From an uncultured Gemmatimonadota bacterium (GTDB taxonomy: Bacteria; JAAXHH01): a stretch of 64,000 nt of DNA. The stretch covers positions 2,368,001 through 2,432,000 of the forward strand of contig OX638340.1 of assembly GCA_951812955.1 (NCBI GenBank), written 5' to 3'. The first letter of the stretch is position 1. Every line of letters begins with the position of its first letter. This document shows, piece after piece, positions 1,533 to 63,882 of the stretch. Below the pieces are notes generated by a model that was not told the origin of the DNA, ran no database searches, and was given only the letters and a program-made list of their open reading frames with translations. Made by a program: the position numbers and the translations under genes.

Positions 1533-2225
1533 ATGGCGCTATCGGATTTCACGGGACCGGATTACATCGACGCGTGGGCGGCGGACCTGGACCGGCGGTG
1601 GCCCGAGCGGGCGGCGATGGTGGATTGCGTCGTGCGGACGCTGGTCGAGTGGCAGGATGAACGGCGCGTACGAAATCTGCGCCAAGCGGGATCGCGCGAG
1701 AAGAAGTGTCATGCAGTGATCCGCCTCCTGGAACTGGGGATCGGCGCGGGTGGACTCGCCGAAGCCGTATTGGACGCGTTGGTCGATGCATCCGGTGAGG
1801 GGTCGCCCGATGCCGTCGAATACACGGGGATCGACATCGAGCCGGCACTGGTAAGCCATGGGAAGGAGCGGCTCATGGTGGCCGGGCACCATGACGCCCA
1901 CCTGATCCAGGCGGACCTGAAGGATGGCAACTGGATCTGCGGGAACGGCCCTTTCGACGCGGTCTACTCCCTCCAGACATTCCATGATCTCGGCGGCGTC
2001 GAAGCCCTCGAAACCGTCTACCGGCAGACCCACGGACTCCTCGCTCCGGGCGGCGTCCTGGTCAATGCGGATTTCGTCGTACCCTTCGAGAAAGACGATC
2101 CGGAACGTCCCCGGCGGTTGCCCGTCGAGACGCACCAGGACCTGCTGTCCAGCCTGGGTTACGTTGATTTCAAGTGTAAACTGCGGTTAGGAAAAATAGC
2201 GTGCATGGCGGCCAGGCGGCCGTAG
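1533..2225 (+). CDS. class I SAM-dependent methyltransferase
   Basis: Motif I LELGIGAGG and an acidic motif II (ADLKDG), followed by LAPGGVLV. The ATG at 1533 is in frame with the longer ORF that starts at 1386. Confidence 0.6.
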   Translation: MALSDFTGPDYIDAWAADLDRRWPERAAMVDCVVRTLVEWQDERRVRNLRQAGSREKKCHAVIRLLELGIGAGGLAEAVLDALVDASGEGSPDAVEYTGIDIEPALVSHGKERLMVAGHHDAHLIQADLKDGNWICGNGPFDAVYSLQTFHDLGGVEALETVYRQTHGLLAPGGVLVNADFVVPFEKDDPERPRRLPVETHQDLLSSLGYVDFKCKLRLGKIACMAARRP

Positions 2226-2262
2226 ACTTTCCAGGAATGACTTCTTTTATCCAGCCCTGCCC

Positions 2263-3015
2263 TCAAATCCCCAACTTCTTGCGAGCTACCGGCTCCCAGC
2301 CAAGGAGCATGCGGGCCTTGGCCATATTCATTTCCTCACGCTGCTCGTCCCCTGAGATGAAGAACACCTCGCAGCGGCCCTTGCCGGGCTGGTCGAGGAA
2401 CCTCAAGCCTGCCAGGTAGGCCTCGGCCATGTCTTCCTCGTCGGTGTAGTACAGCTTCGGATCTCCGGGTGGGTGCTTGATCCGGTCGATGTACATGGTC
2501 CGGTTGCAGGGTCCCGTGATCCGGTAGACGAGGAGGTTCATGTCATACTCGCGGGCGAAGTACCGGCAGATCCGCTCCGTTAGACCCTTGGTCAGACCGT
2601 ACACGTTCGGACCGTCCAGGGGAACCTCTTCCTCGGAAGGATACCAGGTCCGGTGCCGGTTGTGCACGCTCATGGTTCCGGTGTAGATCCCCCGCGTGAC
2701 ACCCATTTCGAAGGCGGTCAGCAACAGCACGTGATGGCCCAGGCAGTTGACGGTGTAGTTGTCGATCACCTGGTCCATGGTATGATGGCGATCGTGTCCG
2801 CCCTGGCCGCCCTTCATCGCCATGGTAATGAACCCGTCCATGCCGTCCAGGGCCTCGCGCACCGCGTCGGGATCGGTGATGGACCCCTGAATGTATTCGA
2901 TATCGTCGTTCCGGGGAGGATTGAGGTCCAGCACGCGCAGGCTATGGTGTTGCTGGAGATAGGGCGTGACGGCCGTCCCGACGAGACCGGAACCGCCGAC
3001 GAGGAGCAGGTTCAT
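2263..3015 (-). CDS. NAD(P)-binding Rossmann-fold epimerase/dehydratase-family protein
   Basis: N-terminal LLVGGSGLVG is a GxxGxxG dinucleotide-binding motif. Architecture is that of a short SDR/epimerase. Confidence 0.55.
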   Translation of the reverse strand: MNLLLVGGSGLVGTAVTPYLQQHHSLRVLDLNPPRNDDIEYIQGSITDPDAVREALDGMDGFITMAMKGGQGGHDRHHTMDQVIDNYTVNCLGHHVLLLTAFEMGVTRGIYTGTMSVHNRHRTWYPSEEEVPLDGPNVYGLTKGLTERICRYFAREYDMNLLVYRITGPCNRTMYIDRIKHPPGDPKLYYTDEEDMAEAYLAGLRFLDQPGKGRCEVFFISGDEQREEMNMAKARMLLGWEPVARKKLGI

Positions 3016-3026
3016 GAAGAGGACCC

Positions 3027-4430
3027 TTAGGAGGTCGCCTCGGCCTCAGCTTCGGCCCTGGGCGTGATCTCCGGTCCCCGGGGCGTGTCCTTGATATCGA
3101 AACCGGCGGCGATGATCTGATCGCGCAGCGAATCGGCATCGGCGTACCGTTTTTCCGCGCGGGCCATCCGCCGTTCCTCCGCCAGCGCCGTGATGTGGTC
3201 GGGGACGGCCGCCTCTTCCGGTTGCCACTCGGCCAGGCGCAGTCCCAGAATATCGTCGAACCGCGTGATCGTGGCTTTCTTGAGGTCGTCCGGCAGATCG
3301 CTTCGGACCAAGTCCCAGGTGACGGACATGGCGCGGGGCATGTTCAGATCGCTATTCACAACCTCGGTAAAGCGCTGCATGTAGACCTCGTCCGCTTCCG
3401 CGGCGGGATCGCCCCAGCCGTGGACCGCCAGCCGAAGCCGGTTCAGTTGACGGGCGGCGCCTTCGATGCTTTCCCATCTGAAGTTGAGCTTGGACCGGTA
3501 ACTCGCGCTCAGACAGAACAACCGGTAGACGAGGGGATCGTAACCCCGTTCGATCAGGGTCTGCACCCGCAGGAAGCCGCCGGCGGATTTCGCCATCTTG
3601 GCGTCTCCCAGTTGCAGGAAATACCCGTGCATCCAGAAGTTGGCGAGGCGCGTGCCGTGGCAGGCCTCGGTCTGGGCGATCTCGTTCGCGTGGTGCACCG
3701 AGATGTGGTCTTCGCCGCCCAGGTGGATGTCGAACCAGGGACCGAGGTACTTCGCAGACATGGCCGAGCACTCGATGTGCCATCCGGGGAACCCGACGCC
3801 CCAGGGACTGTCCCATTCCATCTGCCGTTTCTCGTCCGGCGGGCTGAATTTCCACAGGGCGAAATCGGTCACGTTGCGCTTTTCCGCCATGGCAACCCGC
3901 GCGCCGGCCTCCAGCCCCTCCACGTCCAGCCGCGCAAGGTAACCGTAACCGGGCTGCTTCGACGTGTCGAAGTAGATCCCGTCGGAAGTCCGGTAGGTGA
4001 GCCCCTTCTCTTCGATGCACTGGATCTCCCGGATCTGCTCGGCGATATGGTCGGTCGCCCGGCACCACGTATCCGGCGCCAGGATGTTCAGCCGCTGCAT
4101 GTCTTCCTTGAAGACCCCGGTATAGAACTCGGCGATCTCCCAAGCCGTCTTCCCCGCTCGCCGCGAACCTTCCTCCATTTTGTCCTCGCCGGTATCCGCG
4201 TCGGAGGTCAGGTGTCCCACATCGGTGATGTTCATCACTTGACGGACCTTGTAGCCATTGAATTCCAGCACGCGCCGCAGCAAGTCGCCGAAAATGTACG
4301 TGCGCATGTTGCCGATGTGCGGGAAATCGTAGACCGTGGGGCCGCAGGCGTAGAGACCCACCTCGTCCCGGGACAGCGGCTCGAACTCGCGGAGACTTCG
4401 CGTGTAGGTGTCATACAGGGTGAGGGGCAT
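3027..4430 (-). CDS. cysS: cysteine--tRNA ligase
   Basis: Class I aminoacyl-tRNA synthetase HIGN (HIGH) and KMAKS (KMSKS) motifs. The GPTVYD N-terminus is typical of CysRS. 467 aa. Confidence 0.9.
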   Translation of the reverse strand: MPLTLYDTYTRSLREFEPLSRDEVGLYACGPTVYDFPHIGNMRTYIFGDLLRRVLEFNGYKVRQVMNITDVGHLTSDADTGEDKMEEGSRRAGKTAWEIAEFYTGVFKEDMQRLNILAPDTWCRATDHIAEQIREIQCIEEKGLTYRTSDGIYFDTSKQPGYGYLARLDVEGLEAGARVAMAEKRNVTDFALWKFSPPDEKRQMEWDSPWGVGFPGWHIECSAMSAKYLGPWFDIHLGGEDHISVHHANEIAQTEACHGTRLANFWMHGYFLQLGDAKMAKSAGGFLRVQTLIERGYDPLVYRLFCLSASYRSKLNFRWESIEGAARQLNRLRLAVHGWGDPAAEADEVYMQRFTEVVNSDLNMPRAMSVTWDLVRSDLPDDLKKATITRFDDILGLRLAEWQPEEAAVPDHITALAEERRMARAEKRYADADSLRDQIIAAGFDIKDTPRGPEITPRAEAEAEATS

Positions 4431-4657
4431 GAAACGTGACTCCGCTGGATCTTCTCCGGCTGCCTGAATCCGTTTAGAGGTTCGTCCGGTTTTTCGTCAA
4501 TTTTGCCATGTACCAGATACGCAGGGGGACGGTCAAAGTCAAGCGGTAAAACGGTGAAATACCCATCGTCTTTGGGGTTCGATTTTAAGATTACAGTTAC
4601 TGATCCTGCTAGGATTCTGGCAAAAAGCAGACTGAAGCTACCAATAAAGAAATGACA

Positions 4658-4686
4658 TTGCACATTTATGGTGGATTCGCTATAAT
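4658..4686 (+). promoter_or_regulatory. sigma70-like promoter TTGCAC-17nt-TATAAT upstream of the toxin gene
   Basis: -35 TTGCAC at 4658-4663, a 17-nt spacer, and -10 TATAAT at 4681-4686, all in an AT-rich islet. The ATG at 4691 is only about 5 nt downstream, so the transcript may be leaderless. Confidence 0.45.
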
Positions 4687-4690
4687 TTAA

Positions 4691-5068
4691 ATGACTTTAA
4701 CGATACTCAAACCGATTGAATGGGTAGGCTCCAGTAAGTCCGATCTCAAAACGTTTCCAAAATTCGTTTGTGGCAGGATTGGCTTTGCGCTTTATCAGGC
4801 GCAATCAGGACTCAGGCACCGGGACGTCAAACCGCTCAAAGGGCTGGGTAGCAACGTTCTGGAGGTAATTTGCCGTTACGACGGCGATACTTTTCGGGCG
4901 ATCTACACGGCCCAATTCAGAAGAGCAATATACGTGCTGCTTGCTGTACAGAAGAAATCCAAACGCGGAAGAGCAACACCTAAACCAGAGATCGACCTGG
5001 TCAGGAGTAGGTTAAAATCCGCGGGGCAACATTACCGGACATTCTATGCAGGAGAATACGATCGATGA
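4691..5068 (+). CDS. type II toxin, RelE/ParE superfamily (Gp49/HigB-like, phage-related protein family)
   Basis: LKPIEWVGSS..DL..FP, KPLKG.G..VLEV..RYDGDTFRAIYT and AVQKKSKRG..TPK match the Gp49-type addiction-module killer family. The gene overlaps the downstream antitoxin gene by 4 bp. Confidence 0.8.
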   Translation: MTLTILKPIEWVGSSKSDLKTFPKFVCGRIGFALYQAQSGLRHRDVKPLKGLGSNVLEVICRYDGDTFRAIYTAQFRRAIYVLLAVQKKSKRGRATPKPEIDLVRSRLKSAGQHYRTFYAGEYDR

Positions 5069-5391
5069 AACCTCAAGATGTAAAAATCGAACGCAGCAGC
5101 GGAAATGTCTTTGCCGATCTTGGCTTGCCGGATGCCGAAACGCACTTGCTTAAAGCTGAGCTAGTGACGCGAATCGACAGGATCATTCGCCAGCGTGGTC
5201 TGAAGCAGGTCGAGGCGGAGAAATTGCTCAGGCTGTCTCAACCTGACGTGTCCCGACTGATGCGAGGGGACTTCCGGGAGTATTCAGTGGAAAGGCTCCT
5301 GCGCCTTCTGACGGCATTGGGACGCGATGTCGATATAGTCGTCCACGAGAACCACGCCGGGCGACCTGGACGTCTCAGCGTAAGAACTTGA
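5065..5391 (+). CDS. XRE-family HTH antitoxin (HigA-like addiction-module antidote)
   Basis: ATGA overlap with the toxin gene. The protein shows the NVFADLGLPDAE..L.K.L and Q.E.A.LLGLSQP.VSRL.RG pattern of an HTH_37 antidote protein. Confidence 0.8.
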   Translation: MKPQDVKIERSSGNVFADLGLPDAETHLLKAELVTRIDRIIRQRGLKQVEAEKLLRLSQPDVSRLMRGDFREYSVERLLRLLTALGRDVDIVVHENHAGRPGRLSVRT

Positions 5392-22421: not shown

Positions 22422-22500
22422 TCCTGGCCTGCCGCCTGCTATACCTGGCCTGCAGCCTCGACTGCTATTCCTGCCCTGCCACCTGCTATTCCTGGCCGGA
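22422..22500. repeat. about four tandem copies of a roughly 19-bp unit (CCTGSCCTGCMRCCTGCTATW)
   Basis: Intergenic, between the hydrolase start and the Fic gene end. Confidence 0.4.
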
Positions 22501-55157: not shown

Positions 55158-56000
55158 ATGCGCCAGTTCGACCGGAAATTCGGCGAAAGGCTCATCGAGA
55201 ATTCTCCCATGACACCTGCGGTATACCTGTTCAAGGACGGGCAGGGCTCGGTGATCTACGTCGGCAAGGCCGGGAACATCCGCCGGCGCCTCCAGCAGTA
55301 CCGCAACGCCTCTCGGCGCAAGGTGCACCGCAAGATGCGGACGCTGGTCCGAGAGGCGAGCGCTCTCGAGATCATCCCTCAGGAATCCGAACGCGAAGCC
55401 CTGTTGCTCGAGAACGAACTGATCCGCAAGCTGCGGCCGCCGTACAACGAGGACGGCACGTGGGATTTTCTATATCCGGCACTCGGAATCGGCGGCACCG
55501 AAAAACAGGTACTGATTTGCTTCACAACCCACGTGGACGCGTGGAAAAGCCTGGACCTGAGGTGGTACGGCGTGTTCAAATCGCGGCGGCGGGCGCTGGC
55601 CGCATTCGATGCGCTGGTCTACCTCCTGCGGCTGATCGGACATATCGAACCGGTGCGGTATCTTCCGCCCCACGAACGGATCCGGGGTTCCCGCCTCACC
55701 GGTTTCCGCCAATTGGCGCCCGAAGTCGTTTCCGCGCTGGACCGCTTCCTGTCCGGAGTCGGCCCCGAAGCGCTCCTACCCCTGACCCACGGTCTGCTGG
55801 AAAAACCCGCCGCCCGCCACGACGCATCGGAAGTCCAGCGGAACATCCGCATGCTCGCGCACTTCCACGAAAGGGACCTCGCGCCCCTGCGCGCGGCCAT
55901 GCGTTCTGCGGGGCGGCCGGGCTCCTTCGTGTCCCAGGCCGAGCGCGACGCGCTGTTCCTGGCCACGGACGAGCGGATCGGCAATGAGGCGGATCCCTGA
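55158..56000 (+). CDS. GIY-YIG nuclease family protein (UvrC N-terminal-like / Cho-like)
   Basis: PAVYLFKDGQGSVIYVGKAGNIRRRLQQY fits the GIY-YIG pattern of UvrC/Cho, and ENELIRKLRPPYN is conserved. 280 aa. Confidence 0.6.
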   Translation: MRQFDRKFGERLIENSPMTPAVYLFKDGQGSVIYVGKAGNIRRRLQQYRNASRRKVHRKMRTLVREASALEIIPQESEREALLLENELIRKLRPPYNEDGTWDFLYPALGIGGTEKQVLICFTTHVDAWKSLDLRWYGVFKSRRRALAAFDALVYLLRLIGHIEPVRYLPPHERIRGSRLTGFRQLAPEVVSALDRFLSGVGPEALLPLTHGLLEKPAARHDASEVQRNIRMLAHFHERDLAPLRAAMRSAGRPGSFVSQAERDALFLATDERIGNEADP

Positions 56001-56111: not shown

Positions 56112-56381
56112 ATGATATTGTCCGATGACCATGGGAGACATACGACCGTGATTGAATCCGGCATCACGAGCAAAGGGCAGACCACGGTGCCCAAGTTGGT
56201 ACGGGAAGCGCTTGGTCTGGAGTCCGGCGACAGGGTGCGATACGTGATTGATGACCAGGAAGTGCGCATGCTGCCCGTACGTCCGATCGGCAGGCTGTTT
56301 GGCGTACTCAGACATTGTGGCCCACCCGTCACCATCGACGAGATGGAACAGGCCGTTGCCCGCGGAGCCGTCGACCAATGA
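56112..56381 (+). CDS. vapB: AbrB/MazE/SpoVT-fold antitoxin (VapB-like)
   Basis: SKGQTTVPKLVREALGLESGDRV swapped-hairpin motif. Possible GTG start at 56148 with GGGAGA upstream. 4-bp ATGA overlap with the PIN gene. Confidence 0.7.
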   Translation: MILSDDHGRHTTVIESGITSKGQTTVPKLVREALGLESGDRVRYVIDDQEVRMLPVRPIGRLFGVLRHCGPPVTIDEMEQAVARGAVDQ

Positions 56382-56770
56382 TCGCGCTGGATACCAATGT
56401 CCTGGTCCGGTTTCTCGTGCGCGATGACGAGTCGCAGGCTGCGTCCGCCCGGACTATGCTGGCATCGTGCTCGGCAGAAAAACCCGGATTTGTCTGCCGC
56501 GAAGTCATCCTCGAACTCGTATGGGTCCTTGAACGGGCATACAGCTTCCCTCGCGAACAGATTGCCGACGTACTGGAGCAACTGGTCTCGACCGAGGAAC
56601 TGGTGGTGGAGGCCGCCGCCGATGTTGCGCGCGCTGCATTCAAATACGGAACGGGTGAAGCGGGATTCTCCGACCTGATGATTCTGGCAGCTGCCGAAAG
56701 ATCGCACGCACTGCCCGTGTACACCTTTGACCAAAAGGCCGCGCGGGCCGAAGGTGTGCGTTTGCTGTAG
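56378..56770 (+). CDS. vapC: PIN-domain ribonuclease toxin (VapC)
   Basis: N-terminal IALDTNVLV (first catalytic Asp), an acidic residue cluster and a C-terminal D..Q. The start is taken at the internal MIALD that overlaps the vapB stop. Confidence 0.8.
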   Translation: MIALDTNVLVRFLVRDDESQAASARTMLASCSAEKPGFVCREVILELVWVLERAYSFPREQIADVLEQLVSTEELVVEAAADVARAAFKYGTGEAGFSDLMILAAAERSHALPVYTFDQKAARAEGVRLL

Positions 56771-56906: not shown

Positions 56907-57764
56907 ATGTTTAAAAAAGTACTGCAGGATGTTTGGGCCTTCGACGCGGAATGGGTTCCCGATCCCGATGCGGGGCGTTTGCTCTACGACCTGCCGCCCG
57001 ACATGCCCGACCGCGAAGTCGTCCAGGAAATGTGGCGCATGAACGGAGCCACGGTAGAAATGCCGCGACCTTTTCTCAAGTATGCCATGAGCCGCCTGGT
57101 GTCCATCGCCATGGTGACCAGAACCCAGGGCCCGGATGGAAACGTATCGCTCGACCTGCGGGTGCAGCCCAGGAATCCGGAAAACCCCGATGACTGTGAC
57201 GAAGCCACGATTCTGTCCCGTTTCCTGGAAAGCGTGGGCCGGCGCCAGCCCCAGCTCGTAGGCTTTAATTCCTCTGGATCGGACCTGCCGATCATGATTC
57301 AGCGGGGGATCATCAAGGGCGTCACCGCGGCCGGGTTCTGCAAGCGGCCGGACAAACCCTGGGAGGGTTACGACTACTTCTCCCGCGCCAGCGATTGGAA
57401 CGTGGACCTGATGACGGCAATCGGGGATTGGGGCAAGGCGCGGCCGTCATTGAAGGAGATGGCCGTACTGTCAGGCATACCTGGGAAGATGGGCGGTTTC
57501 GACGGCGACAGCGTTGCCGAGGCCTGGCTTGACGGAGACATCCGGAGGATCGCCCAGTACAACCAGCACGACGCTGTGACGACCTACCTTGTCTGGCTGC
57601 GCATCGCCCACTTCGCGGGCTTCTTCGACGACGTTCAGTACCGAGACGAACACGCTCTGGTGCGATCGATGCTCAAAGAGAAGGCGCAGTCACCAGAGAA
57701 CCAGCACCTGGCCGAATATGTGCAGGAATGGGACCGGCTCACGGGGATGATCGGGGAAGGGTAG
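56907..57764 (+). CDS. predicted 3'-5' exonuclease, RNase H-like (PolB exonuclease-domain-like)
   Basis: WAFDAEWVP (Exo I-like D.E), YNQHDAVTTYLVWL (Exo III-like Y...D), and size typical of stand-alone PolB-like exonucleases. Confidence 0.5.
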   Translation: MFKKVLQDVWAFDAEWVPDPDAGRLLYDLPPDMPDREVVQEMWRMNGATVEMPRPFLKYAMSRLVSIAMVTRTQGPDGNVSLDLRVQPRNPENPDDCDEATILSRFLESVGRRQPQLVGFNSSGSDLPIMIQRGIIKGVTAAGFCKRPDKPWEGYDYFSRASDWNVDLMTAIGDWGKARPSLKEMAVLSGIPGKMGGFDGDSVAEAWLDGDIRRIAQYNQHDAVTTYLVWLRIAHFAGFFDDVQYRDEHALVRSMLKEKAQSPENQHLAEYVQEWDRLTGMIGEG

Positions 57765-57837: not shown

Positions 57838-58284
57838 TCATATATACATTTCCATGCACCACGTCTCGAACCCATGGCTCCGGTAGAACTTGAGCACACC
57901 GTCCAGGTCTTTTGTCGCGGAATGCACGCGGAACCGCCGAATGCCATTCCGACCGGCAATCTCCTTCATGCGTTCAACCAGCTTGCCCCCGACTCCGGCG
58001 CTTCGGTAGGGTTTTCTGACATACAGATCGTATATTTCCATATGCCGCTCACCTTCTTCGAATACACACAGGTCGCGGCTGACGTGGACCTCGCCGCGGC
58101 TGTACCCGATGATTTCGTCATCGACGACAGCCACGAGCAAATAGGGTCCCAGGGCTTCCCTGATTTCGTCCGGCGAACTGGGTCCGAAGCCGTATGTTAC
58201 CCCTTCGGATTCCCAGTCCAGGTCCAGTTGATGAACGGCTTCCACGTCACCGGGTTCGCATTCGCGTATGATCAGGTTGTTCAT
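57838..58284 (-). CDS. GNAT-family N-acetyltransferase
   Basis: RSAGVGGKLVERMKEIAGRNG acetyl-CoA-binding motif (R/Q-x-x-G-x-G/A). 148 aa. Confidence 0.7.
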   Translation of the reverse strand: MNNLIIRECEPGDVEAVHQLDLDWESEGVTYGFGPSSPDEIREALGPYLLVAVVDDEIIGYSRGEVHVSRDLCVFEEGERHMEIYDLYVRKPYRSAGVGGKLVERMKEIAGRNGIRRFRVHSATKDLDGVLKFYRSHGFETWCMEMYI

Positions 58285-58496: not shown

Positions 58497-58823
58497 ATGC
58501 GAGATGATGGACTTGCAGGTAGGATACGTCCTTTGCTTTCACAGCTTCCGGGTTACTCAGAGAAATACATGTTCGGCGGCGTCTGCTTCATGATCAACGG
58601 CAACATGTGCGCGGGAACATGGAAGGACTCGCTGATCGTACGGCTCGAACGGGATAAGCACGACGAGACGCTGGCCGAACCGCACACGAAACCCGCCGAC
58701 ATCGCGGGTCGGGCCATGAGAGGATGGGCACTTGTGGAACCGGAAGGGATCGCGAGTGAGGATGACCTGGAAACGTGGGTAGCCCGCGCCGCCGATTACG
58801 CCGGTTCTCTGCCGGCGAAGTAG
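58497..58823 (+). CDS. TfoX/Sxy N-terminal-domain protein
   Basis: EKYMFGGVCFMINGNMCAG matches the TfoX_N core. 108 aa. Confidence 0.65.
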   Translation: MRDDGLAGRIRPLLSQLPGYSEKYMFGGVCFMINGNMCAGTWKDSLIVRLERDKHDETLAEPHTKPADIAGRAMRGWALVEPEGIASEDDLETWVARAADYAGSLPAK

Positions 58824-58881: not shown

Positions 58882-58943
58882 CGGCTGTTAGCAAGTCCAG
58901 GTTGCGGCTGATTGCAAGTTTTTAACCGTCCAAGTGCAAGTTT
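58882..58943. repeat. three copies of a CGTCCAAKTGCAAGTT / GGCTGATTGCAAGTTT-type repeat at the 3' end of the ATPase gene
   Basis: The last copy encodes the ATPase C-terminus (NLHLDG*). The sequence is homologous to the array upstream of the same gene. Confidence 0.5.
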
Positions 58944-60244
58944 GAGGCGGTTTCTACCGGATTCTCCCAAAGCAAACTGACCGGCGCAACCGTCAGTCCT
59001 TCTCCAAAACTCCAACACTTTTCTCCGTCATAAAGCACCACGCCGCCGGCGAACCGGTCACCAGCTGCATCCTTCAGCTTGCGCAATCCGTGGAAATCCG
59101 AAGCGCGTACAGTACTTGACGCTTTCACTTCCACACCCGCAACGGCCATTGTCCCCTTCTCGATCACCAGGTCTACCTCAACCTTGTCCTTGTCCCGATA
59201 GTGATAAAATGTCAGCGTATCATCAGACCAACTGGCCTGTCGTTTTAACTCTTGAAACACGAATGATTCCAGATACTGTCCGAATAGATCCCGATCTTTC
59301 TTCAGCGCCTCGCTGCTCGCACCGATCACGGCGCATCCGATTCCCGTGTCGCAGACATGCAGCTTCGGTGCCTTGACCATTCTCTTCAATCGATTGTTCT
59401 GCCATGCGGGTATCCGTTCCAGCAGGAAGATTCTTTCAAGGATCTCTACATACTTACCTATGGTCGGTCGGCTGAGGCTAAAGGTGGAGGACATGTCCTG
59501 AAGATTGTACAACCTTGCTGTTTGAGTCGCTGCAACAGAGAGGAGTCGAATCATGGCTCCATGATCACTTATCTTGGCTATGTCACGTACATCCCTTTGA
59601 AGTTGTGTTTCAACATAGTTCAGGTACCAATTGCGTCTTCTACCCTCGGTTGAGCGAGCCAACGCGGCCGGGAATCCTCCAGCTACGATTCTATCGGCCA
59701 GTCGGTCCGACGCTCCGGCCAACTCTGGCGCTTTAAGATCACCAGAAAACAATCGATCAAGAAAGGTGGGATGCTGACCCGACAGTTCACACTGGGCCAG
59801 TGGGTGGAGTCTGATGATCTCCAGCCGCCCCGCAAGAGAATCCGATACTCGTGGCACGAGCAGTACCTGCGATGATCCCGTTAGCAGAAACCGGCCGGGA
59901 ATCCGATCACGGTCGATCGCCATTTTCAAAGCGGTGAATATGGAAGGCGCCCGCTGAACCTCATCCAGAATTACTCTGCCAGGCAAATCGTTAACGAAGC
60001 CTATTGGATCTCTTTCCGCGGCTTCGCGTGCTGTTTCATCGTCAAAGGTAATGTAGTTGGCACCGCCCCATTCAATGACCGTTTCGCCGCCCCATACTAT
60101 GGTTTGCGACGGATTCATCATTCTCGCCAAGGTGGTCTTGCCACACTGTCTCGGACCGTGGATCAGGACGGCCGGCGAATCGGCAAGCGCCTCTTTCAGT
60201 GGGTGTTCCGCGTAACGCGGATAGAGTTTGGTCTCGGATGTCAT
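58922..60244 (-). CDS. AAA+ ATPase (COG1373-type; AAA_14 + DUF4143-like)
   Basis: Walker A GPRQCGKTT, Walker B VILDEVQ and a C-terminal restriction-endonuclease-like region. The start is ambiguous between M at 60244 and M at 60319. Confidence 0.75.
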   Translation of the reverse strand: MTSETKLYPRYAEHPLKEALADSPAVLIHGPRQCGKTTLARMMNPSQTIVWGGETVIEWGGANYITFDDETAREAAERDPIGFVNDLPGRVILDEVQRAPSIFTALKMAIDRDRIPGRFLLTGSSQVLLVPRVSDSLAGRLEIIRLHPLAQCELSGQHPTFLDRLFSGDLKAPELAGASDRLADRIVAGGFPAALARSTEGRRRNWYLNYVETQLQRDVRDIAKISDHGAMIRLLSVAATQTARLYNLQDMSSTFSLSRPTIGKYVEILERIFLLERIPAWQNNRLKRMVKAPKLHVCDTGIGCAVIGASSEALKKDRDLFGQYLESFVFQELKRQASWSDDTLTFYHYRDKDKVEVDLVIEKGTMAVAGVEVKASSTVRASDFHGLRKLKDAAGDRFAGGVVLYDGEKCWSFGEGLTVAPVSLLWENPVETASNLHLDG

Positions 60245-60351
60245 TTTCGTAACGGGCTTTCGAGTAAGTTCCGTTCCTGATCGCATTGTACTGAGTGGTA
60301 CGTTCAATTCTTCTACCATGGCTTCCTGTTGTAAAATCTAATCCTTTCATC

Positions 60352-60440
60352 GGCTGATTGCAAGTTTATAATCGTCCAAGTGCAAGTTATCACCCGTCCA
60401 ATTGCAAGTTTAATTGCCGTCCAAGTGCAAGTTATCGATC
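60352..60440. repeat. array of four roughly 22-bp direct repeats (core CGTCCAAKTGCAAGTTW) upstream of the ATPase gene and downstream of dnaE2
   Basis: GGCTGATTGCAAGTTTATAAT, CGTCCAAGTGCAAGTTATCAC, CCGTCCAATTGCAAGTTTAATTG and CCGTCCAAGTGCAAGTTATCGAT. Confidence 0.55.
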
Positions 60441-60483
60441 AGTAACATGTTGAAATCATATCATTTAACCATTTATAATCTCC

Positions 60484-63400
60484 TCAACGAAAATCCCGAC
60501 TCCGAAGCCGCAGCGTCCGGTCCTCCAGCCTCGGGTCCCAGACCGCCTCGGCCACGAGGTGGACCACCCCTTCGCCCACCTGCAGGTTTCCGGTCACGCC
60601 TAAGCAGGGAAGCGTCCTGACCAGCGAGGAATAGTACTCGAATACTTTCTCCCAGATGACCAGATTCACGAACCCCGTTTCGTCCTCCAGTGTCATGAAG
60701 GTGACGCCCTGGGCAGTCCCCGGACGCTGACGGCAGATGACCATGCCCACGTAATGGACCAGGCTGCCGTCCGGCATCCCGTTGAGTTCCCGTGCCGCGG
60801 GCAGTCCCTGGGCGGCCAGACCGGGGCGCAGCGGTTCCAAGAGGTGGCCCAGAACGCTGTGGTCGCTGACCTGATGATCCCAGACGATAGTTTCCAGGCT
60901 GCCCAGGGAGGGAAACCGGGGAGGGGAGGTGCGGCTGTCGAGCGGCAGCGCGGGCGGCTGCCGGGTTTTGGTACCCAGGACCTGCCATAAGGCGCCGCGG
61001 CGGTCTAGGCCGAAACACGCGAAGGCACCCGCCTCGGCCAGGGACTCCAACTTGTCCTCGTGGAGTCCGCTCCGCCGGGCGACGTCCGGAAGGTCCCGGA
61101 AGGGGGTCCGCTCCATAGCCCGGATCAGTTTCTCCCAGTCTCCTTTGCTCAGTCTCTGGACATAGCGCAGTCCCATGCGCACCGCGAACCGGGCGCAACC
61201 CTCACCGCCATCCCCGGCACCGCCCCTGCTATCGTTCCCTGTACTGCCTCCGCTATCGCCCGCGTCTTCCGCTTCAATCTCCTCCAGGGTGCAGTCCCAG
61301 CGGCTGTGAAGAATGCTCACCGGCCGCACTTCCACCCCGTGTATCCGGGCGTCGTTGACGATGGTGGCGGGCGAGTAGAATCCCATGGGCTGGGCGTTCA
61401 GCAGGGCGCAGGTGAACTCCGCCGGGTAGTGGCAGCGCAGGTAGGCGGTGGCGTAGGCGATGTGGGCGAAGCTGGCGGCGTGGCTTTCCGGGAACCCGTA
61501 CTCGCCGAACCCCCGGATCTGCTGGAAGACGCGTTCGCCGAATTCCTGCTTGATGCCCTTCCTCATCATGCGCGTGACCAGCCGTTCCCGGTGCCGTTCG
61601 ATCCGTCCCGAGCGCCGCCAGGCGGCCATGTCCCGCCGGAGCTGGTCGGCCTCGCCGGGGGTGTAGTCCGCCGCCACCATGGCCAGTTGCATCACCTGCT
61701 CCTGGAAGAGGGGCACGCCCAGGGTCTTCTCCAGGACGGGCACGAGGCACTCGTGGGGATAGGTGACTTCCTCCACTCCGTTGCGCCGACGCAGGTAGGG
61801 ATGGACCATGCCGCCCGTGATGGGCCCGGGACGGACGATGCTGATCTCGATCACAAGGTCATAGTAGGTGCGCGGCTTCAGGCGCCCCAGCATGGCCATC
61901 TGGGCCCGGCTCTCGATCTGGAACACCCCCACCGTGTCGCTGCGGCAGATCAGGTCGAAGGTGGCGGCATCCCCCCGGGGGAGCTTGGCCAGAGAGAGGT
62001 CTATCCGGCGGTGCCGCCGCAGGAGGTCGAAGCCGAGGTGCAACAGGTTGAGGGCGCCCAGGCCCAGGAGGTCCACCTTGAACAGTCCCGCGTCTTCCAC
62101 ATCCTCCTTGTCCCACTGGATCACGGTCCGCCCCTCCATGGTGGCGTTCTCGATGGGCACCAGGTCATGGACGGGATAATGGCCCAGCATGAAGCCCCCG
62201 GGATGGATGGAGAGATGGCGGGGAAAATCCTGGATCTCCCGCACCAGGACGTTCAGGTGGAGCAGGGCCGGGTTTTCGGGATCGAGGCCTGCCTGCCGGA
62301 TGAAGGCCCCGTCCCAGCGTTCGTGAGCTATCAGCTTGGCCAGACGGTCCAGGCTGGTTGCTGGTATCTCCAGTACCTTGCCCACCTCCCGGATGGCGGA
62401 CCGGTGGCGGTAACGGACGACGTTGGCCACCATGGCGGCGTGGGTGCGCCCGTACTTCTGGTACACGTGCCGGATCACCTCTTCCCGGCGGTTGTGTTCG
62501 ATGTCCAGGTCGATGTCCGGCGGCTCCGCCCTTTCCCTCGACAGAAAACGCTCGAAGAGGAGGTCCACCTGGGTGGGGTCCACGCTGGTGATGCCCAGGG
62601 AGAAGCAGACAGCGGAGTTGGCCGCCGATCCGCGGCCCTGGCAGAGGATCTTCTCGCGGCGGCAGTATTCCACGATCTCGTGCATGGTCAGGAAATACCC
62701 CTCGTACTCCAATTCCCGGATCAGGGCGAGTTCTTTCTTCAACTGGGGAGTCAGTTGCTTACTTTTGCCGGGCAGGCGGCGTTCCGCGCCCGCGAAGGTG
62801 CGTTCCTCCAGGTACTGGATGGACGTCTTGCCTTTTGGCAGGCGCTCCAGCGGGTAGCGGTAGCGCAGTTCCCCGAGGGAGAAGGTGCAGCGGTCGGCTA
62901 TCTCAAGGGTGCGTTCGAGGGACGCCGGGTCATCGCCGAAGAGCCGCGCCATGTCTTCCGATCCCTTCAGGGCGTACTGGTCGTTCGGCCGGAGGAGGCG
63001 CCCGGCCGCGGGCAGCGTCACGCCCTCCCGGATGCAGGTCAGCACGTCCTGCAGGGGACGCCGTTCGGGCGCGTGGTAGAGCACCTCCACGGCAGCCACG
63101 GTGGGCAGTCCGAAGCGGTCCGCCAGCTCCCGGAGACGAAACTCCTTCAGGATCTCCTCCGCCCTGCGATGCCGGGCCAGGACCACGTACAGGCGGTCTT
63201 TGAAGGCCGCGCGGAGTGGTTCGAGGATAGGGGCGAGGCTGGGGTCTGCAAGGGGCGGCGCGGACTCGGAAAGACCCGATTCGGGGGACGCGCCCTCAAG
63301 GGGCGGCGGGGACGCGTCGGCGGCTCCGGGCGCCGTCGATTCAGGCACGCCGCGCGATTTCAAGTCTCCAGCGCCAGGCGCGGACCCGACGGTGACCGTT

Positions 63401-63882
63401 CCAGAGCCGGACGATCCAGATCCCCCGATCCACAGGGCGATCAACCCCGGGCTGTGGCGGCACACTTCCTCCCAACTCACCCGGCAGTTCCCCTTGGCGC
63501 CGCGCAGGTGCCCGGCGGTCAGCAGCCGGCAGAGCTGGGCGTAGCCGTCCCGGTTCTGGACCAGCAGCAGGATCTCCGAGCCGTCCCGGAGGCTGACCTG
63601 CGATCCCACGACCAGGTGGACGTCCAGTTCCCGGGCGCGGACGTGGGCCCGCACGATGCCGTACACCCCGTTGCGGTCGGTGAGGACCAGGGACGGAAGG
63701 TCCAGGCGGCGGCAGGCCTCCACCAGTTCCTCGGGATGGCTGGCCCCTTCCAGGAAGGAGTAGTTGCTCTTGCACCAGAGGGGCGCGTAGGAGGGAGCTG
63801 GAGACACAAATCCATTCGTGGCCGCCGGACGCGACCCGGTTTTTGTTTTCTCGGTATTCATGATGATCTCAGCGGCCGACAA
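60484..63882 (-). CDS. dnaE2: error-prone DNA polymerase III alpha-family (DnaE2/ImuC)
   Basis: PHP domain at the N-terminus ([29 protein letters not shown]), the DnaE2-type polymerase core, and a C-terminal OB fold. 1132 aa, with a Gly/Ser/Pro-rich insert. Confidence 0.85.

Follow-up and report, generated by a model that had tools for sequence, protein, structure and literature searches.

The window analysed here is a 64,000-nucleotide stretch of contig OX638340.1 (positions 2,368,001 to 2,432,000) from an uncultured Gemmatimonadota bacterium, and it contains a gene for an ATPase-nuclease of the AAA_14-DUF4143 family (COG1373, PDC-S01; 58922–60319, minus strand) that is preceded by an array of four short direct repeats with a 22–23-bp period (60351–60433, minus strand). 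Such an upstream array is a hallmark of two large clades of this family. The arrays are always in the same orientation and immediately upstream of the gene, and they were found in bacteria, archaea, plasmids and virus-labelled contigs. Their period is rigid at 22–24 bp, the number (3–8) and sequence of the units vary between lineages, and the ATPase is the sole gene common to all array-bearing loci. The arrays are read here, with a probability of about 0.6 and from sequence comparison, as iteron-like binding sites for the ATPase itself, through which the gene would be autoregulated.

The upstream array of the window, a proposed operator or iteron array, consists of units U1 (60418–60433), U2 (60395–60410), U3 (60373–60388) and U4 (60351–60366), all on the minus strand and delimited by a 16-bp core; U3 is of the AACTTGCAMTTGGACG type, and U4, the unit nearest the gene, reads AACTTGCAATCAGCCG. 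Three further units are present at the 3' end of the gene (58882–58942, minus strand). D1 (58927–58942) encodes the residues NLHLDG, D2 (58905–58920) lies just past the stop codon, and the degenerate D3 (58882–58897) matches D2 at 13 of 16 positions. The stop codon TAA (58922–58924) sits in the spacer after D1. The 3' array repeats the order of U3 and U4, with a TTGGACG-type unit followed by a TCAGCCG-type unit, and is interpreted as a lineage-specific partial copy of these two promoter-proximal units. With a repeat finder, the two sets were recovered as a 38-nt direct repeat (58905–58942 and 60351–60388, 95% identical, offset 1446 bp), with further in-register copies stepping 22–23 bp in both arrays, all of them direct; the same program returned no inverted-repeat structure or attC-like imperfect palindrome in the window repeats. 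The first-pass annotation of this DNA had reported a 38-bp repeat at both gene ends about 1.45 kb apart, four upstream and three downstream copies, and a repeat that codes for the C-terminal NLHLDG. All three observations are real, and only its coordinates needed to be shifted by 1.

The repeat is specific to this gene within the window. The 16-mer CGTCCAAKTGCAAGTT, allowing up to three mismatches, has six matches in 64 kb, every one at the ATPase gene, compared with 0.82 expected by chance, and none of 100 shuffled windows reached six. Likewise, six of the seven matches of the 8-mer TGCAAGTT (0.97 expected) are at the ATPase gene. No Rfam match at E≤1 was obtained for the repeat region. A known RNA and a generic interspersed element similar to repetitive extragenic palindromes, the latter a possibility that the first-pass annotation had kept in mind, were both ruled out, since the motif is confined to the ATPase gene in 64 kb, is not palindromic and lacks an Rfam match. 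A search for periodic 7-mers at 20–26 bp found two arrays in the whole window, one of which is the ATPase array; the other comprises three copies of CTGCTAT (22436–22483) in steps of 26 and 21 bp.

The link between array and ATPase was also recovered from the DNA side. One genome per species (185,579 species) was scanned for three copies of AACTTGCA at 20–25-bp steps, the matches (at least 120) were sorted by period, and the ATPase was sought with an iterated hidden Markov model. Among the matches listed, 18 of 24 period-23 arrays lie 31–73 bp upstream of a DUF4143 ATPase open reading frame (ORF) on the same strand, and none of 53 period-21 arrays is so placed. The linked ATPases include some with 25–30% identity to the window protein, from Collinsella, Prevotella, Actinotignum, Bacilli and two Methanomassiliicoccales archaea. 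In the archaeal loci, L051 among them, the array is just upstream of an AT-rich, TATA-like stretch, and L046 has an array of the same kind. The placement of archaeal arrays by a TATA-like element argues against a purely sigma-70 explanation. In Collinsella, near-identical strains (L006, L011, L053, L070, L103, L115) have 3–5 units at one orthologous site, and the arrays therefore expand and contract quickly. Locus L116 contains three adjacent DUF4143 paralogues (317–1627, 1872–3110 and 3238–5127), with a 23-bp array at the first alone.

Arrays of AACTTGCA do not form a single class. The 53 listed period-21 arrays are heterogeneous, many of them lie inside ORFs, and they share no common downstream gene. 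Two metagenome-assembled genomes of Tepidisphaerales/Tepidisphaeraceae (L016 and L017), for example, contain long period-21 arrays unrelated to any ATPase gene; the L016 array has nine units, and those of L017 are palindromic (AACTTGCAAGTT). Three of the listed matches are true Rep_3 plasmid iterons (L041, L061 and L069, from Prevotella/Xylanibacter), in which 21–22-bp AACTTGCAAGG... arrays precede Rep_3 (WH1/WH2) initiator genes by 150–250 bp. Their sharing of the 8-mer is coincidental, and they are plasmid iterons of the classical kind.

Samples chosen by protein were added because the DNA-first scan was conditioned on the motif. In 80 metagenomic loci, scored by the criterion of at least three periodic 6-mers at 21–25 bp, arrays were detected upstream of the gene in 11 of 72, downstream in 1 of 67 and internally in 0 of 77, with 0 of 360 in shuffles. 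A second sample consisted of 20 loci whose proteins share 50% identity or more with that of the window, for which a 13-nt degenerate unit was counted in the 200 bp upstream. Two or more units were found in 15 of the 20, and most of the others show degenerate units by eye. The forward strand has 11.3 units per kb and the reverse strand none, compared with 0.045 per kb elsewhere; the units are spaced by 23 bp and the final one abuts the ATG. A second clade, represented by 33 virus-labelled contigs, shows the same layout, with arrays upstream in 20 of 29, downstream in 0 of 31 and internally in 0 of 32. The spacing is 23 bp throughout, except for one 22-bp step in one locus, and the unit sequences differ strongly by lineage. 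Prevalences from both types of detection are lower bounds, as TRF and exact 6-mer matching miss degenerate arrays that are visible by eye (L126, L132, L134–L141, L211).

Arrays are present in cultured strains as well. The homologues (46% identity) on Agrobacterium tumefaciens pAt (CP048549, 132489–133745), a plasmid of Rhizobium leguminosarum CB782 and Marinobacter VT8 pMAQU02 are preceded by 22-nt arrays, which end at the ATG on pAt and in CB782 and stop about 14 nt short of it in Marinobacter. A faecal contig labelled 'Bacteriophage sp.' (L211, MT839327) encodes a homologue with 25% identity and contains about five TGCAAAATnTATCGGATTAGA units with a 23-bp period at about 270–420, ending in TATAAT. 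Two other phage-labelled homologues (L209 and L210) have no clear array.

The longest ORF of the window gene starts at ATG 60319, with AGGAAG in front, and the core shared by the family begins at ATG 60244. Pfam assigned AAA_14 (1.2e-23, 84 bits, cut-off 27) and DUF4143 (4.9e-44, 150 bits, cut-off 28.1) alone to the window protein, with no Rep-family domain. Residues 6–428 match positions 10–420 of the 422 in the PADLOC PDC-S01 profile PDLC04790 (8.8e-160). The Walker A (G30-P-x-x-C-G-K36-T), Walker B (D94-E95) and nuclease (D358...E372-x-K374) motifs are invariant in alignments A1, which comprises 12 proteins of the family, and A2. With this full-length profile match, the two Pfam domains and the Walker and PD-(D/E)XK residues, the window protein is a member of PDC-S01; an anti-phage role of the family is a candidate function. 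It has thousands of homologues. No match was found in NCBIfam or in a sequence search of solved structures, and an exact look-up of the sequence returned no record. DUF4143 was assigned to the PD-(D/E)XK superfamily in 2012, with its function given as unknown. PDC-S01 has been described as an unvalidated candidate that counts as the fourth commonest defence system of prokaryotes, one survey having found about 39,000 copies, and is frequent in archaea; when one representative was tried in E. coli B, it did not protect against T7, T5 or T4. Several transfers of the family between domains have been reported (PMC12988326).

The AlphaFold model of the window protein (mean predicted local distance difference test score, pLDDT, of 74) contains an AAA+ domain, a helix-strand-strand winged-helix region (predicted helix 259–272, strands 275–278 and 294–297) and a PD-(D/E)XK-like sheet. 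A fold search of this model gave generic AAA+ clamp-loader matches plus Card1/Cdn1-type nuclease matches, and no full-length structural analogue. The usual C-terminus of the family is ...LLWE, and the protein of the relative L072 terminates in LLWEHPE (alignment A1). The window protein has a clade-specific tail of 13 residues (NPVETASNLHLDG, codons at 58925–58963, minus strand), because its ORF runs on into D1; this tail is absent outside the narrow clade.

The sequence of the units varies with the first residues of the predicted recognition helix. All 21 proteins with arginine at position 259 (S-R-x-T, at the start of helix 259–272) have a TGCA-type core in their array, which is mostly TTGCA, with two TTACA or GTGCA. 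The seven proteins scored with serine, threonine, glutamine or glutamate at this position come from about five lineages and have other cores (CTTTAAAT, TCCAGAT, CTGTAAT, GTTGCTGAAT and AACTCGGAAG). It is because of the linkage to the gene, the periodicity, the orientation and this covariation between helix and unit that the winged helix is proposed to read the units.

In the proposed mechanism, the winged helix of the ATPase (S-R259-P-T...Y265) would read one unit per subunit, and the AAA+ domains would form an oligomer that follows the array with a fixed 23-bp register. The resulting occupancy of the promoter would lead to negative autoregulation of a potentially toxic nuclease. Comparative data are the basis for this predicted self-binding and for the autoregulation that it would bring about. 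The 3' units of the window would be a copy of U3 and U4 that is specific to this lineage and was placed at the stop codon. They may constitute an auxiliary site, either for looping to the promoter or for stopping the tfoX transcript that converges on the gene, or may be no more than a relic in decay. The only effect that can be seen is that the gene is flanked by direct repeats, which would allow its deletion, as suggested for locus L065 (see below). Two readings of the repeats had been offered in the first-pass annotation. The iteron-like protein-binding array agrees with the comparative evidence, in that fixed-period arrays of the same kind occur at the predicted promoters of relatives across phyla and vary in sequence with the predicted recognition helix; the att-like ends of an integrated cassette are not supported, for reasons given with the other explanations below.

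A candidate sigma-70-type promoter overlaps the gene-proximal end of the window array (60335–60363, minus strand). Its -35 element, TTGCAA (60358–60363), lies inside U4, and a 17-nt spacer separates it from the -10 element, TAGATT (60335–60340). As read from the sequence, this promoter is weak (8 of 12 positions match the consensus), and the TTGCAA-17-TAGATT arrangement is kept in the orthologous loci L001, L004, L072 and L002. On this reading, the window array would overlap the ATPase promoter, with U4 supplying the candidate -35 element. In many relatives, the penultimate unit is TTGCAAT and the last is TTAC(A/G)AT, followed after about 7 nt by ATG; from sigma-70 geometry, these last two units would serve as a -35/-10 pair (TTGCAA and TACAAT) with an 18-nt spacer and give rise to a leaderless mRNA.

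The last unit ends at the real start ATG in L095, L126, L141 and L208, and the window clade has about 100 bp extra between the array and the conserved ATPase start. An out-of-frame ATG (60348–60350, minus strand) abuts U4 at the position of the real start codon of the relatives, and is possibly the remnant of an earlier leaderless start that an insertion of about 100 bp displaced. A 92-residue out-of-frame ORF (60072–60350, minus strand) begins at this ATG. On the other side of the array, an AT-rich segment (60434–60483) that is conserved in the narrow clade fills the space to the dnaE2 stop codon. On the gene strand, it contains a conserved, extended -10-like sequence, TGATATGAT, upstream of the array. 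On the plus strand, a strong promoter-like sequence (60450–60479, TTGAAA-18-TATAAT, 11 of 12 positions) is aimed antisense into the 3' end of dnaE2. Most relatives outside the narrow clade lack the AT-rich segment beside the array, and no DnaA-box-like site was found within 60300–60500.

Several observations weigh against binding of the ATPase to its own promoter array. A consensus scan omitted the TTGCAA-17-TAGATT promoter and instead gave another weak site, TTTACA-17-AAGAAT, at 60335–60307. The table that relates residue 259 to unit cores is qualitative, was partly ascertained through the AACTTGCA search, and contains lineages that are not independent. Residues 239–258 of the winged-helix region were modelled with a pLDDT below 50. 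In the samples examined, members of the family less than 35% identical to any array-bearing query show no array; the absence of arrays from most such members indicates that the array is not essential to the biochemical activity of the family. Finally, the 3' units have decayed in L002 and are missing from L072, which makes any role for them doubtful.

The local history of the gene can be followed in close relatives. Five contigs with proteins 85–94% identical to the window protein have the same gene order (lexA, imuA-like, imuB, dnaE2, ATPase, tfoX) and 4–6 upstream units each, and the ATPase is at the same site in L001, L002, L004 and L072. The upstream array is kept in all four of these loci, and the orthologues (79–97% nucleotide identity) have 3–6 upstream units with the same core and diverged spacers. 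L001 and L004 have the 3' units as well, L002 has them in degenerate form and L072 (an 82% relative) lacks them, and no 3' match above the gene-interior background was found in 13 other subfamily loci that were scored. Bracketing as a general property of the family was ruled out on this basis. The general feature is the upstream array, and the 3' set is a local peculiarity of a narrow clade, made up of the window, L001, L002 and L004. In comparisons of L002, L004 and L072 with the window, the ATPase gene has 79–81% nucleotide identity and its dnaE2, exonuclease and tfoX flanks 87–94%; this higher divergence hints that the ATPase gene evolves fast or has undergone allelic exchange. The L002 ATPase is nearer to that of the window than the L002 flanks are.

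In the window, the gene lies between TfoX_N (58497–58823, plus strand) and a DnaE2-type polymerase (60484–63882, minus strand), as had been annotated at first pass. The nuclease- and toxin-antitoxin-rich surroundings described there were also found. The intervals 56112–56770, 55158–56000 and 56907–57764 on the plus strand and 57838–58284 on the minus strand contain genes for a MazE-PIN toxin-antitoxin pair, a GIY-YIG nuclease, a 3'-5' exonuclease of the PolB type and a GNAT acetyltransferase. Of these neighbours, the toxin-antitoxin pair and the GNAT gene are missing from L002, as is tfoX, and this part of the neighbourhood thus varies between relatives.

Loci that have an array and no ATPase gene were found in two groups. 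In L065, a metagenome-assembled genome of Latescibacterota, dnaE2, a single four-unit array and tfoX follow each other without the ATPase. An empty site with one array, which the cassette reading of the first-pass annotation had led one to look for, does therefore exist, and it was considered as a pre-insertion site. That interpretation was dropped in favour of deletion, because the flanks of L065 are closest to those of the gene-bearing L002 (dnaE2 99.2%, exonuclease exo2 92.4%), relatives more distant than L002 all carry the gene, and L065 is nested among carriers. The parsimonious reading is that L065 arose by deletion through recombination between the flanking repeats. The direct repeats on both sides would make the ATPase gene of the window lineage deletable and would account for its clean loss. 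Segatella copri L021 and L098 have likewise retained an array in the absence of the ATPase. Compared with Prevotella L034, a 1.38-kb segment with the ATPase ORF is missing in Segatella copri, and this segment is not bounded by repeats. The orphan arrays of Segatella copri L008, L021 and L098 are of the Prevotella type (CCTCAACTTGCACAATGAAATAG) and lie downstream of an ammonium-transporter gene; the next gene in L021 and L098 encodes an XRE helix-turn-helix/Peptidase_M78 (ImmA-like) protein, and L008 has about 1.7 kb of unrelated DNA beside the orphan array in place of the ATPase.

Other explanations of the arrays were weighed against this material. If the arrays were att-like ends of a 1.45-kb mobile cassette, integrated site-specifically into a pre-existing array and excisable as a circle, the bracketing of the gene by 38-nt direct repeats with 95% identity and the gene-less sites of L065 and Segatella copri L021 and L098 would be expected. 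The divergence of the ATPase gene from flanks that are better conserved in L002, L004 and L072 (79–81% versus 87–94%) could then reflect cassette exchange, and the published multiple transfers of the family between domains (PMC12988326) would also be in keeping with mobility. However, the position of the gene is unchanged in all close relatives, neither the genes called in the 13-kb orthologous locus nor the scanned neighbours in the window include an integrase or transposase, and the repeats are direct, with no attC-like inverted structure. The 3' units are limited to one narrow clade, in which they are decaying, with no comparable match in 13 other subfamily loci; loss is the parsimonious explanation for L065, given its flanks nearest to gene-bearing L002; and the segment missing from Segatella copri is not repeat-bounded and left the array behind. 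A cassette is therefore quite unlikely. We regard it as similarly improbable that the arrays are only duplicated promoter hexamers or UP-like elements, generated by replication slippage and read by RNA polymerase alone. The last one or two units do provide plausible -35 and -10 hexamers with 17–18-nt spacers, and slippage predicts a variation such as the 3–5 units among near-identical Collinsella strains. Nevertheless, the best-conserved part of the unit in the window clade is its 3' half, YRGMCG, which is outside the hexamers, and in many lineages units without any sigma-70-like hexamer (e.g. GCCAACTCTCGGAA and CACCAAACAAAACA) are still placed at exactly 23 bp. Furthermore, the archaeal loci L046 and L051 have the array though their promoters are not of the sigma-70 type, and the unit sequence follows the helix residues of the ATPase.

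A different role for a bound ATPase, in which the array is the site where the ATPase-nuclease must assemble for its main job (as a defence complex, or in handcuffing or looping) and the overlap with the promoter is secondary, is unlikely as well. The period is better conserved than the sequence in both clades, which hints at an oligomer that sets a structural register, arrays outlast loss of the gene as orphans, and the second array 1.45 kb away in the window clade resembles the paired iterons of P1 and F. Most other subfamilies, however, lack a detectable array, one array per locus is the rule, and no further arrays of this type were seen elsewhere in the window. The array and the AT-rich segment could also be taken for a small replication origin with the AAA+/winged-helix protein as its initiator. 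In its geometry, the array matches classical iterons (direct repeats of 22 bp in 3–8 copies beside a gene), the same DNA pattern recovered the Rep_3 iterons of L041, L061 and L069, and 50 nt of AT-rich DNA adjoin the window array. Since the locus is chromosomal and syntenic, the protein has no Rep-family domain, no DnaA-box-like site is near the array, most relatives lack the AT-rich segment and an intact nuclease motif is not a feature of an initiator, an origin is highly improbable. Binding of the ATPase to its own promoter array, with autoregulation as the outcome, remains the preferred reading.

The nearest functional analogy is the arrangement of iterons and Rep proteins in plasmids. In P1 and mini-F, iteron sets bracket the rep gene (incC/incA and incB/incC, respectively), and the upstream set overlaps the rep promoter. 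The likeness to the window locus extends to direct repeats of about 19–22 bp in 3–9 copies beside the gene of the presumed binder, an upstream set on the predicted promoter that fits autorepression, a second set downstream in the window clade, and covariation between repeat and protein. In contrast to plasmid iterons, the window protein is an AAA+ ATPase-nuclease fusion rather than a WH1-WH2 Rep protein, the locus is chromosomal, syntenic and without DnaA boxes, and the downstream set is not general. A similar logic is known from AAA+ initiators that regulate their own genes: DnaA binds DnaA boxes in the promoter of dnaA, and Orc1/Cdc6 of archaea binds origin recognition box (ORB) elements. 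Like these, the window protein joins an AAA+ domain to a predicted winged-helix reader (a helix-turn-helix or winged helix in the initiators), with arrayed sites for an oligomer beside its own gene. Kinship is limited to the AAA+ fold, however; the window units are strictly tandem and unidirectional at 22–24 bp, and the protein carries a C-terminal PD-(D/E)XK nuclease.

Two types of mobile element are more distant. The window locus resembles integron or att cassettes in having a single gene between related repeats, with gene-plus and gene-minus alleles at the same site. It differs from them in lacking an integrase and an attC palindrome, and in that it does not change place, its gene-less allele is the derived one and its upstream repeats carry the predicted promoter. 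The ends of Tn7-type elements consist of arrays of 22-bp TnsB sites, and these elements encode a PD-(D/E)XK nuclease (TnsA) and an AAA+ ATPase (TnsC). The 22-bp site period and the combination of an AAA+ ATPase with a PD-(D/E)XK nuclease are thus shared with the window locus. Unlike Tn7, whose end arrays are mutually inverted, the window has direct arrays, and it has neither a DDE transposase nor a target-site duplication and is not mobile among relatives.

The papers found on the DUF4143/COG1373/PDC-S01 family contain no mention of a cis element. A literature search with the motif strings and with DUF4143, COG1373, AAA_14 plus 'direct repeats' and PDC-S01 found no published description of the arrays or the motif. 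The conserved array at the predicted promoter is therefore an apparently undescribed addition to the described PDC-S01 family. A more far-reaching idea is that the arrays are an obligatory DNA track and that an ATPase-nuclease filament, with one subunit per unit, is the working complex of this family, which is among the most abundant and most poorly understood of prokaryotes, perhaps as a defence sensor/effector or as a self-propagating gene-plus-array module. We consider this doubtful and offer it tentatively; if it were true, the array repeats of a self-propagating module would be what causes it to be gained, lost and exchanged by genomes, even between bacteria and archaea.

COG1373/DUF4143 proteins have carried the label 'function unknown' since 2012 or earlier, and the cis element is the first concrete molecular handle on this family. 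It yields a predicted DNA ligand, a predicted contact residue (Arg259) and a predicted regulatory logic, all of which are testable in cultured carriers of the array, namely Agrobacterium tumefaciens pAt, the Rhizobium leguminosarum plasmid and Marinobacter nauticus VT8. Additionally, heterologous cloning of the ORF with or without its native array may give misleading expression.

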